A stretch of DNA of 64,000 nt from Candidatus Uhrbacteria bacterium. Its GTDB lineage: Bacteria > Patescibacteriota > Patescibacteriia > GWA2-47-26. A program made the translations under genes and the position numbers. This document shows positions 7,061-57,158 of this stretch, one piece after another; the stretch's first letter is position 1, and every line of letters begins with the position of its first letter. The stretch lies in NCBI GenBank assembly GCA_016187515.1, contig JACPJN010000009.1:4891-68890 (forward strand), given 5' to 3'. The notes under the pieces were generated by a model. That model saw only the letters and a program-made list of their open reading frames with translations. It was not told the DNA's origin and ran no database searches.

Positions 7061-7268
7061 ATACCGCTCGGCAGATTTTTATTTTACGCAAAAAGTTCCA
7101 TAGTGGGAACTATGGAACTTTTTGGACTTTTGATCTTCTGACGTATGGGTGATCCGATGTGTAAGGCAATACTTCCTCACGATCTTGCAAAATTAAAAGG
7201 ACCCTACGTGTCCGCAGGTCAGCTCGGCGCGTTGGAGCTGATGTGCGGGTCAGTAGGGTCTTGCCTCT

Positions 7269-7424
7269 TTGGGAGCGTGCCGAAGATCACCGCTGCTGTC
7301 CGGTCTTGTAGTTCCACTGGGGCCAGCGACCGTCCGCGAGACGACCGCCGACACAGCGATGCCACCCGGTGTAGCCGTCCCTGTTGTACTCGTACTCGTA
7401 ACGACCGAGCTTCTGCCATGCGGT
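7269..7424 (-). CDS. Hypothetical small Trp-rich protein (51 aa) inside the GC-rich island
   Basis: ATG at 7424 with GAGGGAGAAG RBS, GC3-biased codons (MTAWQKLGRYEYEYNRDGYTGWHRCVGGRLADGRWPQWNYKTGQQR). It falls below the length cut-off of the ORF track. Confidence 0.25.
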
Positions 7425-7619
7425 CATGGTGTCTTCTCCCTCGTTGTCCGGCTGGTTGGTTGATTTGCCGGCGGAAAACAGATGTTATGCATCTATCTTA
7501 CGTCGGTAAAACAAATCGGGCATTTTAAAAGAACATTAACACTTCGCACACCCCCTCTAACTCCCCCTCGGTAAGGGGGAGAAATTGCTTTACGTGAACA
7601 AACCCACTATAGCACATTT

Positions 7620-8417
7620 TCATCGTTTTGTCAAGTAGGAGCGGGCAATGAGCGCGGGAAACAGCACCACGGCGCGGTAAATGCGGACAATACGCCAGGG
7701 CTGAAGGAAGAGGCGCCAGAGCCATTCTAGGCCAAGCGCGCGAAGTAGGCGCGGGGCGCGGCGCACGCGGCCGGCAATAAAATCCAGCGCGCCGCCAACG
7801 CCCATGGCAATTTTGACGCTGGGCAGTTCCGCAAGATGGCTGGCAATCCATTTTTCTTGTTTGGGGTGGCCGAAGGCGACCAGTAAAATATCCGGCGCGA
7901 CATCACGAATACGTTTAATTACACCCTCACCCCCGCCCTCTCCCATCCCCGCACCAGAACAAGTTCGGTACGGGGCAGGCAAGGGAGAGGGAGTAAGTAA
8001 TACTCCGCTTTCCGCACCTACAATTTTTAATTTTACATTTTTAATTTTTAATTTCGCGGCCGCAGCGGCCGCAACCCCCTCCCCTGCTCCAAGCAAATAC
8101 ACCGAGTATCCTCCCGCAACCGCCAGCCGCGCAATGTCCCAAACGAAATCCGAACCCGCAATCCGCTCCTTAAACGGAAGGCGTAAAAACTTTGCGGCCA
8201 GCATTAACCCAAATCCATCCGGAAGCGCGAGCGAGGCGCGATTCAGTATATTACGAAATTCCGCGTCATTTTGAGCGGCAACAATAAACTCCGGATTCGG
8301 GGTCGTCAGGATATGTTGACCACCATCCTTAAGCAGGCGCTCCACCCGGATAATCGCCTGCTCCCGCGTTATAGTGTCCACTTTCACTCCAAGTATCAAA
8401 GGCATAGTAATGCACAT
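7620..8417 (-). CDS. WecB/TagA/CpsF-family glycosyltransferase (UDP-ManNAc/ManNAcA transferase-like) with repeat-derived inserts
   Basis: C-terminal GT26 motifs VAFGHPKQEKW...MGVGGALDFIAG...LGLEWLWR. Internal low-complexity inserts from the AT-rich repeat (KLKIKNVKLKI) and a GC hairpin (PLPAPYRTCSGAGMGEGGGEG). Confidence 0.6.
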   Translation of the reverse strand: MCITMPLILGVKVDTITREQAIIRVERLLKDGGQHILTTPNPEFIVAAQNDAEFRNILNRASLALPDGFGLMLAAKFLRLPFKERIAGSDFVWDIARLAVAGGYSVYLLGAGEGVAAAAAAKLKIKNVKLKIVGAESGVLLTPSPLPAPYRTCSGAGMGEGGGEGVIKRIRDVAPDILLVAFGHPKQEKWIASHLAELPSVKIAMGVGGALDFIAGRVRRAPRLLRALGLEWLWRLFLQPWRIVRIYRAVVLFPALIARSYLTKR

Positions 8418-8457
8418 CCAATCTTCTCATATTTTGAGGAAATATGGTATACTGGTC

Positions 8458-8486
8458 TTGACATGGTTTCTAGCGTATTTTATAAT
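8458..8486 (+). promoter_or_regulatory. Consensus sigma70 promoter TTGACA-N17-TATAAT for clpB
   Basis: TTGACA at 8458-8463, 17-nt spacer, TATAAT at 8481-8486. Confidence 0.65.
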
Positions 8487-8489
8487 GAA

Positions 8490-55006: not shown

Positions 55007-55236
55007 GTGCCACAGCGCCGAATGGCATGCACGGCGGACCCAGAGGCGGGCCTGCCGGCCACTTAGTCCTTTCCCCAAATCCGTCATCTCGAACGCAGTG
55101 AGAGATCTCTTTACCTTCGCATGCCACGCGGAAGAGATTCCTCGCTAGCGCTCGGAATGACGATTAACCGCTCCTTCGTCAACCCACCCGATCGTGCGTC
55201 ATGCGCGATCGGGTGAATTATTTTATACAAGGAATT

Positions 55237-55318
55237 CCCTCCCTTAAGGTAAGGGAGGGTAGGGTGGGTTATGAATTTCTCGTAACCCCTCCTCGCCTCC
55301 CCTTACCCTAAGGGGAGG
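55237..55318. repeat. Family-1 double element (forward plus reverse complement), intergenic after the LOG-like gene
   Basis: Same sequence as the atpG copy, in the opposite arrangement. Confidence 0.8.
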
Positions 55319-55321
55319 AAA

Positions 55322-56062
55322 CTAAAGCCCACTCACATCCACGCCGTGTTTTTGAAAAAACTCCTTGAGCGCTGGCTCTATTTTCACACCTCTCTTTCGC
55401 AAATACGCAGCGCTACGTGTTAAATTTCCTTGGCTGTCGTTGCTAAATGCGCCGGTTTTCAAGCGCGCAACACTCAACGCGTAAAATTCGTCGTCCATAA
55501 CTCCTCCCTCATGTTGCAAACGGCAAAGCTCAGACCATTTGATAAGCGTGACGATCTTGATCCCCCGCTCTTGCAACTCGTGCATCGGTCCTCGCTCACT
55601 CTCCTCCATGTCAAAGTCACCCAAACACGCGATCGCTTCCACTTTGGCGCCGGCATCCTCCAGCAACTTGAGTCCGCCATGTTTATTCTTCCCGCTCGCG
55701 ATCCAATCATCAACCATAAGTACGCTCATTCCTGGTTTGAGGAAGTTGTGTGACCCCATAATCCTTGGCCGTCCCGGCCGTTTCTGGTCTTCCCGCACAA
55801 TCACGAACGGTTTTTTAGTGCGCAAGGAAAGCGCAGTGGTAATAGACACGCCGGAGATCGGCAATGCGGCGAGGAGATCAAATTTCGACACCTCCAGGAC
55901 TTCAAGAAATGCATCCGTGATGAGTGCGAGCGCGGTCGGATCTTGGATCGTCCCCCGCGAAAAATCGAACGGGGTAAAATCAATATTAGTAATTACCGGC
56001 TGCGCGATAATCGCGTTCGGAAAGGTCTTAAGATATTCAAATAATTTTTCTCGCGCAGTCAT
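55322..56062 (-). CDS. Phosphoribosyltransferase (type I PRTase) paralog
   Basis: PRPP motif VLMVDDWIASGKN. 4-nt overlap with the upstream kinase gene. Confidence 0.55.
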   Translation of the reverse strand: MTAREKLFEYLKTFPNAIIAQPVITNIDFTPFDFSRGTIQDPTALALITDAFLEVLEVSKFDLLAALPISGVSITTALSLRTKKPFVIVREDQKRPGRPRIMGSHNFLKPGMSVLMVDDWIASGKNKHGGLKLLEDAGAKVEAIACLGDFDMEESERGPMHELQERGIKIVTLIKWSELCRLQHEGGVMDDEFYALSVARLKTGAFSNDSQGNLTRSAAYLRKRGVKIEPALKEFFQKHGVDVSGL

Positions 56063-57111
56063 ATTTTTGAATTTTCATTAAACAGTATTATTCCCAATGC
56101 CCTAATTTTCTTTTCCCATCTCGGCCATTTTTTAAAGTAAGACCCGCTGCGGCCGTCCGTGCGCGAGACCAGATAAATTCCGGCCCACCTTAACGCGCGG
56201 CGTTTGATGCCATCAACTTCCGTTCGTAACCCCTCCTCGCCTCCCCTTAACCTAAGGGGAGGAAATTGCTTCTCGTATACCCTCCAAAAATCTCTTTGAA
56301 ATTTTTCATTTTCAATTTTTAATTTTGCATTTTTAAGTCCCATCCACATCCAGTGCGCCGTGAGTATTCCACAATCAAACGCGGGATCGTAGGCCACGGT
56401 GTGATCAAAATCAACCATCGAGGCCCTGCCGTGCGGTTTTATAAAAATATTTCGATACACCGGATCGCCCCAAATCCAGGCGCGTGGCGCGCAGTTTACC
56501 TCGCGATAGAAGGCATTTAGCTTTTGCCGCGGCACAAATTTAGCGATCCCCTGCCCCAGCCACCACCCGCCAAAAAAACTGATGATTTTCTTACGCCATG
56601 CCGGAGAGCCGCAACAATCCTGCTTTGTTTCATACGTATTCGCGTGCAGTTTGCCGAATAATCGCCCGAATAACGCCCCCAGTTCCGGATGCACTCGCCC
56701 TTGCTCAAACTCTTCCACGAGCAACGATCCCCCGCCGCCTACATCCGACATCACCAGCACACAGTGTACCGGATCAAAATAATAAATCTCCGGCACATAT
56801 TCCTTCCCCCACAATTTCGCGAGCAATTTCATTATCTGATATTCTCCGCAAATTCGCAGCGGATCCACATAATGCTTCTCGCCCTTGGTTTCCCAGGCCC
56901 TTTTGTTATGCTCCCGCGCCTGCTTCACAAAAAGCACGCGCCTCGTGCGCGGCGTTTTTACCACCACGCGCCAAAGATAATTATTATTGGAATACTTACT
57001 CACCTCATCTCGCTTCAAAATTTCCTCAATCGCGAAGTTAATCCTCGGCTGCACAAAGCTCCGCAGAAACTCGTGGAGATTGTCCTTTGTAATCTCAAAT
57101 TGCCGCCGCAT
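56059..57111 (-). CDS. Protein-kinase-like phosphotransferase (APH/MtnK/ChoK family) with in-frame repeats
   Basis: Catalytic loop IWGDPVYRNIF and VDFDH metal-binding motif. Repeat 56225-56262 encodes FPPLRLRGGEEGLR. AT-rich repeat at 56290-56335. Confidence 0.45.
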   Translation of the reverse strand: MRRQFEITKDNLHEFLRSFVQPRINFAIEEILKRDEVSKYSNNNYLWRVVVKTPRTRRVLFVKQAREHNKRAWETKGEKHYVDPLRICGEYQIMKLLAKLWGKEYVPEIYYFDPVHCVLVMSDVGGGGSLLVEEFEQGRVHPELGALFGRLFGKLHANTYETKQDCCGSPAWRKKIISFFGGWWLGQGIAKFVPRQKLNAFYREVNCAPRAWIWGDPVYRNIFIKPHGRASMVDFDHTVAYDPAFDCGILTAHWMWMGLKNAKLKIENEKFQRDFWRVYEKQFPPLRLRGGEEGLRTEVDGIKRRALRWAGIYLVSRTDGRSGSYFKKWPRWEKKIRALGIILFNENSKI

Positions 57112-57158
57112 AGTTTTCGGTAAATAGTTCCATACTTGGAACTATGGAACTATTTACT

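Follow-up and report, generated by a model that had tools for sequence, protein, structure and literature searches.

The stretch of DNA analysed here (hereafter the window) comprises 64 kb of contig JACPJN010000009.1 from the assembly GCA_016187515.1 of Candidatus Uhrbacteria bacterium, a member of the candidate phyla radiation (CPR), and contains a dispersed 32-nt palindrome, AAAAGTTCCATACTTGGAACTATGGAACTTTT, together with the gene of a TrpR-like protein (52769-53392, - strand, 207 aa; NCBI HYW17_05170) that lies between two of its copies. We consider it somewhat probable that the palindrome is the cognate site of this protein and that it has secondarily proliferated as a mini-insertion resembling repetitive extragenic palindromes (REPs) and Rickettsia palindromic elements (RPEs). 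A search of the whole window allowing up to three mismatches gave seven matches to the palindrome compared to zero in 100 shuffles of the sequence, and the seven-copy repeat family reported in a preliminary description of the window is thus real; the coordinates given there were off by 1-3 nt because flanking A/T had been counted in. Loosening the centre in the window search gave no additional copies, and Rfam and tRNA searches gave no match.

In the palindrome a 12-bp stem encloses an asymmetric centre of 8 nt (12-8-12), and the predicted RNA fold has -12.3 kcal/mol (z = -5.1). The full unit of approximately 36 nt reads CAAAAAGTTCCATA-N8-TATGGAACTTTTTG, and its flanks are usually CAAAAAG...CTTTTTG. 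Five of the six reading frames through the 32-mer are open, and the TrpR-like gene takes its stop from the sixth (AAA GTT CCA TAG). Copies 3 to 6 match without mismatch, copy 2 has one mismatch and copies 1 and 7 have two each. Copy 1 (7091..7122, +) carries the centre variant GTGGGAAC and is intergenic, after a canonical terminator hairpin and beside an IS110-like region. Three copies lie within genes: copy 2 (31765..31796, +), with a G at position 1, is in frame in the open reading frame (ORF) 31155-32012 (-), the perfect copy 3 (41305..41336, +) falls in a C-terminal barrel loop of mnmA (41080-42495, -), and copy 4 (51627..51658, +), also perfect, is in a loop of a PyrE-like phosphoribosyltransferase (PRTase; 51078-51860, -). 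The perfect copy 5 (52750..52781, +) gives the TrpR-like gene its last codons and its TAG stop, 48 nt ahead of the ATG of the PRTase 51944-52702. Copy 6 (53488..53519, -), perfect with a flipped centre, is located 1 nt past the stop of the PRTase 53521-54318, and the extended -10 of the TrpR-like gene follows 16 nt downstream. Copy 7 (57123..57154, +) shows a compensated double change (AATAG...CTATT) with pairing that reaches 16 bp, and lies 4 nt after a hydrolase stop and 11 nt ahead of a kinase ATG; the same variant was also present upstream of the TrpR-like gene at a related locus, L036. All window copies are singlets, the closest pair being 738 nt apart, and there are no inverted doublets. 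Four of the seven are clustered within 6 kb near the TrpR-like gene, and at the related locus L038 four fall within 2 kb.

The - strand carries nearly all genes of the window, with GC skew negative along its whole length. In - strand order, a cyclophilin gene (58064-58711) is followed by an alpha/beta hydrolase (57159-58064), copy 7, a methylthioribose (MTR)-kinase-like kinase, a PRTase (55322-56062), an ORF without assigned function on the opposite strand (54413-55006, +), a second PRTase (53521-54318), copy 6, the TrpR-like gene, copy 5 and two further PRTases (51944-52702 and 51078-51860), the last on the - strand, containing copy 4 and followed by SecD and SecF. This order agrees with the earlier statement that palindrome copies separate the PRTase, TrpR and kinase genes. 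The four PyrE/Apt-like PRTase paralogs are divergent, and they and the kinase, in a cluster at 51078-57111, surround the TrpR-like gene; relatives carry phosphoenolpyruvate (PEP)-utiliser genes or nothing at the position of this cluster. Window proteins were identical to the NCBI entries HYW17_05170 and HYW17_05160 and to a 471-aa MnmA, all from a Candidatus Uhrbacteria genome and encoded on a 202-kb contig, and the NCBI gene calls coincide with the ORFs for mnmA (P0051) and the PRTase (P0320).

In the TrpR-like protein, residues 15-101 form an N-terminal YerC/YecD TrpR-like domain, which a conserved three-helix region follows at the C-terminus. The NCBIfam model yecD_yerC (TIGR02531) was matched with 51.9 bits vs a cut-off of 42.2, PF01371 also matched, and the YerC-like structures 3frw, 3kor and 3g1c were found in the PDB (E = 5e-14 to 3e-13), with the alignment extending to Escherichia coli TrpR. 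The predicted model adopts the TrpR fold, with a Foldseek probability of 1.0, and the protein is all-helical, comprising this fold and three helices predicted with moderate confidence. The C-terminal half is strongly conserved (KRRxPLYFWPQ...ANNRQR...SGKGK) and gave no convincing structural match; a match to 8fre, a designed repeat protein, was judged spurious. No catalytic, HUH/Y1, DDE or recombinase domain was found in the protein, and no conserved His occurs among the invariant or near-invariant columns of its alignment. The two-domain family includes 742 representatives (at 50% identity) below E = 1e-10, mostly of 160-200 aa.

The tie between the palindrome and the TrpR-like gene across lineages, which was not part of the preliminary description, emerged from scans of other genomes. 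The pattern AGTTCCATA-N8-TATGGAACT was searched in 185,579 species genomes, a collection without the source genome, and the matches were chance-like except for one other Uhrbacteria metagenome-assembled genome (MAG) with two exact copies and one Saccharibacteria variant. In this Uhrbacteria MAG the two exact 32-mers are 732 nt apart and bracket a TrpR-like ortholog. A metagenome scan added six further loci with exact copies and two loop variants. Homolog contigs were then taken at falling identity, giving 10 lineages with 35-79% aa identity to the window protein. A lineage-specific palindrome was located directly upstream of the TrpR-like gene in all 10, with a second copy at or on its stop codon in nine, and in L040, L041 and L043 these two flanking copies were the only ones in 16-20 kb. 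The genes neighbouring the TrpR-like gene vary among several lineages. In the literature library searched we found no description of a pairing of this palindrome with a TrpR-like protein, and literature on CPR with TrpR, palindromes or REP yielded nothing relevant.

Written as left arm-centre-right arm, the palindrome is GTTCCATA-GTTCCAAG-TATGGAAC in the window, L013 and L036 (GTTCC type) and GTGCCATA-GTTCCCAG-TATGGCAC in L038 and L040 (GTGCC type). L041 and L046 have GTTACATA-GTGTACAC-TATGTAAC and GTTACATA-GTTTACAC-TATGTAAC, respectively, L047 has GTATCATA-CTACTTAG-TATGATAC, and L048, with the upstream copy only, has CTTTCATA-CTCTATAG-TATGAAAG. The remaining forms are CTAGCATA-CTAGCTAG-TATGCTAG in L043, CTAAAATA-CTTTACAG-TATTTTAG in L049 and CTACCATA-CTACAGTG-TATGGTAA in L045 (35% identity). 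L041 and L043 have symmetric centres. A spacer of 15-18 nt separates the upstream palindrome from an extended -10 element of the form TGnTATAMT in six lineages, and the spacer is longer in L046; the corresponding -10-like element of the window is TGATATTAT (53463..53471, -), and the palindrome centre is near -48 of this promoter of the TrpR-like gene.

The palindrome was more strongly conserved than the genes around and containing it. Between the window and L013 the TrpR-flanking copies were 32/32 identical compared to 76% aa identity of the protein and 41% identity at third codon positions. The PRTase copy was likewise 32/32 identical between the window and L026, where the proteins were 72% identical, third codon positions 52% identical and the immediate flanks of the palindrome unalignable. 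As third codon positions are close to saturation in the species that share a 32/32 identical palindrome, the palindrome is, on these sequence comparisons, under strong constraint or else continually homogenised. The centre is flipped between window copies 5 and 6, and also in L036, L047 and L049. Because copies within a genome are identical including centre and flanks, copying or gene conversion of these copies, rather than independent origin under selection, is indicated by the alignments.

Covariation of the arms was assessed on 20 palindromes with 14 pairs (280 cells). Paired cells made up 93.6%, eight of the 14 pairs had changed on both sides (43 cells), and G-U occurred in only two of the 280 cells. 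The pairing score was not reached in any of 500 shuffles, and slid registers were only 31-45% paired. Positions A4, T6, A10-T11-A12 and T14 were invariant, as were the mirror positions including T21-T23 and A27. The invariant positions and the missing wobble intermediates are more in keeping with a symmetric protein that recognises DNA than with a stem formed only in RNA. In addition, the dipeptide that follows Val-Ser at the start of the recognition helix varies by lineage together with arm positions 7-8. In total there were eight dipeptide/arm combinations: QQ with TTCC (GTTCC), QH with TGCC (GTGCC), HA with TATC (GTATC), PT with TTTC (CTTTC), AT with TAGC (CTAGC), AP with AAAA (CTAAA), YS with TACC (CTACC), and QP with TTAC (GTTAC arms), the latter in two non-sister clades that are 54% identical. 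In the profile alignment the counterpart of this dipeptide in E. coli TrpR is Ile79-Ala80, at the N-terminal end of helix E, the helix that reads DNA in the TrpR-operator structure. Counted from the dyad, the invariant ATA occupies -7 to -5 and the variable bases occupy -10/-9, and these base positions of the palindrome appear to fit within the 20-bp geometry of TrpR/HisR operators.

A pattern built from the invariant positions identified two more sites in the window, at 30029-30054 and 41344-41369. The first is an intact palindrome of a second dialect, ACTAACATACT-TTAC-AGTATGTTAGT, with pairing over 30025-30058, which overlaps a NUDIX stop and lies 20 nt before a glycosyltransferase ATG. The second is a degenerate older palindrome of the L043 type, ACTAGCATACTCGCTAATATGATAGT, which adjoins copy 3 in mnmA, encodes YYHISEYAS and is shared with the ortholog at L044. 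No TrpR-like gene matching the second-dialect palindromes was found within the window.

The combination of bracketing, arm covariation and recognition-helix variation is what leads us to prefer a protein site. The 32-nt palindrome would be the local form of a cis-element conserved across the sampled Uhrbacteria-type lineages, with its partner encoded at 52769-53392. A TrpR-type dimer would bind the double-stranded palindrome core, and the upstream copy near -48 of the extended -10 promoter would confer autoregulation. Copies in the stop-to-start gaps of co-directional genes would be roadblocks occupied by protein, or attenuating hairpins, rather than strong terminators. New copies enter as clean insertions of 36 nt and persist in frame where a protein loop tolerates them. 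TrpR/HisR(YerC) proteins bind 20-bp palindromes and are frequently autoregulated, and YerC is the histidine repressor HisR in Firmicutes (PMC9413887). The present system resembles these operators in its TrpR-fold regulator, its palindrome of about 20 bp, its lineage-specific consensus and the site upstream of the regulator's own gene (PMC9413887), and differs from them in the extra conserved C-terminal helical region of the protein, in the second site at the 3' end of the gene, and in sites that are identical including the spacer and also occur inside coding sequences (CDS).

Several points weigh against this reading. The palindrome is unlike the published HisR/TrpR consensus motifs cacTTTA-N6-TAAAgtg or TGTACTnGTnnACnAGTACA, a site centred near -48 is no classical repressor position, and the genes next to palindrome copies make up no coherent regulon. 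The copies are identical including centre and flanks, whereas the sites of a regulon usually vary, and the six in-CDS copies and most gene-end copies share one sense-strand orientation of the centre, to which a double-stranded operator should be indifferent. The covariation of protein and site could come partly from shared descent. Finally, as unrelated repeat families of the same genome also occur in frame in genes, the copying mechanism may be general and independent of the TrpR-like protein, and the spread of the palindrome need not involve it.

An RNA-level element, either a bidirectional terminator or an mRNA-stabilising hairpin of the kind known for REPs, would make the position at the TrpR-like gene a matter of insulation only, and we regard this as quite improbable. 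The bidirectional intrinsic terminator proposed in the preliminary description stands as far as its geometry is concerned, since the A-run/stem/T-run arrangement is present and a terminator pattern scan flagged both strands, but is not supported as the main function, given a stem with only 3-4 G-C pairs and a T-run that is missing from the palindromes of L038, L043, L045 and L047. The sense RNA can form an alternative 7-bp stem with a tetraloop and U-rich sequence directly after it, the palindrome fold is stable, and the intergenic copies overlap stop codons or begin 1-5 nt past them; however, three window copies are intragenic, and both mnmA and the PRTase contain perfect copies with 5-7 T in sense. 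From copy 7 and the palindrome at 30029 it is only 11-20 nt to the next ATG, which leaves no room for a promoter, and transcription of the downstream genes therefore has to pass through these palindromes. The orientation bias of the copies relative to transcription suits a role in RNA, but the near absence of G-U and the invariant stem positions do not, identity across species including the centre is not expected of terminators, and the link to the recognition helix is left without explanation. Intrinsic bidirectional or SPRITE-like terminators share with the palindrome a hairpin between A- and T-runs right after stop codons; the palindrome differs from them in its AT-rich stem, in a T-run that is not kept in sister lineages, in copies within genes and operons, and in a sequence conserved across species. 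Besides the preferred function as a protein site, the palindrome may have a weak attenuator or RNA-stability role.

The three intragenic copies are translated in frame, as had been described, giving EQKFHSSKYGTFC in mnmA, KKFHSSKYGTFF in the PRTase 51078-51860 and QKSSIVPSMELS in ORF 31155-32012, a peptidase in which the copy occupies the linker between the N-terminal transmembrane helix and the C39-like domain. The insert peptides are QKFHSSKYGTF in mnmA and KKFHSSKYGTF in the PRTase. The mnmA ORF encodes 471 aa vs approximately 350-400 in most orthologs, and its segment YYHISEYASMEQKFHSSKYGTFC in the C-terminal barrel loop is missing altogether from the shortest of 15 aligned orthologs. Alignment with the ortholog at L044 (61% aa identity) revealed one clean 36-nt, 12-codon insertion in the window DNA with no target-site duplication; the L044 gene has the older segment YYHTSEYASMG and lacks the palindrome. 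The PRTase insert is missing from both aligned paralogs and from 10 of 16 orthologs, the six others having different, unrelated inserts in the same loop, and it was also present in L026. In these two genes, for which the orthologs were examined, those without the DNA palindrome also lacked the peptide; the earlier suggestion of lineage-specific insertions is therefore upheld, and no peptide segment conserved independently of the palindrome was found. Relatives carry the palindrome in frame in two more genes, those for an alanine racemase (L025) and a ThiI-like protein (L035). In L026 it forms the tail of a HicA ORF, where it is read as KSSIVPSMEL. At this locus (L026, 590-1130), a hicB-like ORF and a hicA toxin gene replace the N-terminal third of the PRTase, with the breakpoint at the palindrome. 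The ThiI-like ORF (L035, 3-749, -) also contains the peptide SLRAQRSNLGVEIATLPMVARDD, which resembles the translation of another dispersed repeat. The sense strand reads GTTCCAAG in each of the six in-CDS copies despite more open frames in the opposite orientation, and this uniformity hints at a strand-specific step.

In their in-frame insertion into unrelated housekeeping genes, in the conserved peptide that they add in permissive surface loops and in having no known transposase, these copies are like RPEs (PMC10969869). RPEs differ in being approximately 100-150 bp long, in belonging to Alphaproteobacteria and in having no DNA-binding protein gene, compared to a 36-nt unit in a CPR genome here. 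RPE-like 'peptide tagging' of enzymes by 12-codon palindromes also occurs outside Rickettsia. Such insertions lengthen CPR proteins and disturb their sequences, and they show up as breakpoints when MAGs are compared.

Insertion without target-site duplication, as seen in mnmA, is also what could be expected of a REPIN/RAYT-like replicator (RAYT, REP-associated tyrosine transposase), in which palindrome-gene-palindrome would be a vertically inherited selfish system and the solo copies its non-autonomous progeny. The TrpR-like protein would then mark the hairpins and recruit a nuclease or a replication step of the host, by which the 36-nt unit would be copied. We judge this explanation unlikely. 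It would account for a single-copy gene between its own palindromes in nine of 10 lineages, with both ends evolving in concert, centre and outer flanks included, for the clustering of copies near the TrpR-like gene in the window and L038, and for the strand and orientation bias of the copies; RAYT genes are likewise single-copy, REP-flanked and vertically inherited (PMC3116915, PMC3337134, bioRxiv 10.1101/2022.05.22.493013). However, the partner is all-helical and lacks an HUH/Y1, DDE or recombinase domain, and amplification is not general, most lineages having only the two flanking copies in 16-20 kb. The neighbourhood secA ... cyclophilin-secD-secF-DUF-traG of the TrpR-like gene is common to the window and L041; the TrpR-like gene itself is not mobile, and this conserved setting also speaks against a replicator.

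One end of REP/REPIN elements is marked by a conserved tetranucleotide, GTAG or CGTC (PMC3733652), and neither this tag nor REPIN doublets were present among the palindromes. The likeness to REP/REPIN-RAYT systems lies in the dispersed 20-40-nt palindromes, the single-copy flanked partner, vertical inheritance, lineage classes and the position at gene ends (PMC3116915, PMC3337134, PMC3733652). The partner of REPs is a Y1 HUH (IS200/IS605-like) transposase, in contrast to the non-catalytic TrpR/YerC-like helix-turn-helix protein found here, and the palindromes here are often intragenic and in frame, have no GTAG/CGTC head or doublets and appear to be low in copy number in most lineages. It is unlikely, though worth stating, that CPR possess a long-lived, vertically inherited REPIN-RAYT-like replicator system in which the single-copy partner is a two-domain TrpR-like DNA-binding protein and not a transposase, its recognition helix co-evolves with the 32-nt hairpin/palindrome, and 36-nt progeny enter housekeeping proteins in frame. 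The palindrome family is in any case a comparison case for the persistence and spread of REP-like elements.

Copies coincide with rearrangement boundaries, and in the window and the related loci scanned none of them was found to have a transposase or recombinase next to it. The 12-8-12 layout and the centre flipped between copies recall the core sites of tyrosine recombinases (lox/FRT/dif-like), which would shuffle gene cassettes. The segment 53520-57122 of the window is an insert relative to L013, L032 and L036 and is bounded by copies 6 and 7, and copies lie at other indel or rearrangement boundaries, such as the hicBA swap for the N-terminal third of the PRTase in L026. Copies 6 and 7 are, however, inverted and not direct, conservative recombination cannot leave a lone 36-nt insertion in mnmA, and the symmetric centre of L041 and L043 would abolish directionality. 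No recombinase or integrase gene was found near copies in the window or in approximately 15 related loci scanned. We hold recombination sites to be very improbable.

CPR bacteria are presumed to rely on the uptake of DNA. A DNA-uptake signal like the DNA uptake sequence (DUS) of Neisseria or the uptake signal sequence (USS) of Haemophilus, whose copies likewise form inverted pairs at gene ends and stand in frame within genes, would suit this presumed reliance, the species-group 'dialects' and the copies at gene ends and in CDS. Single arms were not over-represented beyond ATGGAAC gene starts, and an uptake signal was rejected on this ground. The density is only about one copy per 9 kb, copies arise through insertion and not through point mutation, as in mnmA, and the bracketing of the TrpR-like gene is left without explanation, so that this idea deserves hardly any credence. 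Nor does the palindrome have the features of a miniature inverted-repeat transposable element (MITE), with no duplication at the mnmA insertion and no parent insertion sequence (IS) with palindrome ends found. The IS110-like ORF beside copy 1 raised the possibility of an IS110 target site, which was discarded as there is no half-palindrome at its other end. Viral contigs contained only unrelated palindromes and no relatives of the TrpR-like protein, and a phage link was rejected on that basis.

To our knowledge, almost nothing is known of CPR transcription factors and their sites, the organisms being largely uncultured. Under the preferred reading, the TrpR-like protein and the palindrome would be a candidate protein-site pair in CPR with a natural specificity series of eight helix-dipeptide/arm combinations.

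The window also contains other repeats. A larger family of approximately 16 copies in 12533-63321 consists of a hairpin, CCTCCCCTTAAGGTAAGGGGAGG, often followed by GGGAGGGGTTATG (for example 22197-22244, 42029-42076 and 62974-63021), and several of its copies are in frame in housekeeping ORFs (mnmA, murB); mnmA orthologs share the peptide PPL[TI]LRGG...PPLK[LV]RGGEGE. A 9-nt tandem unit, GTAAATCAA/G, forms intergenic arrays of several units at 13029-13077, 25828-25907, 27635-27732 and 38455-38534, and a short tandem repeat, GACTGTGAACTG, occurs at 4166-4199, 37475-37497, 48791-48848 and 60658-60731, with some copies in the gltX and secA ORFs. The SecA DEAD domain has 417 residues vs a 290-position profile, which suggests further in-frame inserts. 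The IS110-like ORF (5156-6556, +), within 4975-7030, matched the Transposase_20 domain only and has on either side a 140-nt direct repeat (4975-5114 and 6884-7023) with many GUCC-GCAA-GGAC hairpins; these repeats had no Rfam match and possibly form a structured RNA of the guide type. A 23-nt sequence, TTGTGTTTTGGTGCTTGGAATTT, is perfectly duplicated in tandem at the 3' end of the mnmA ORF (41122-41169), in a C-terminal tail that is variable among orthologs.

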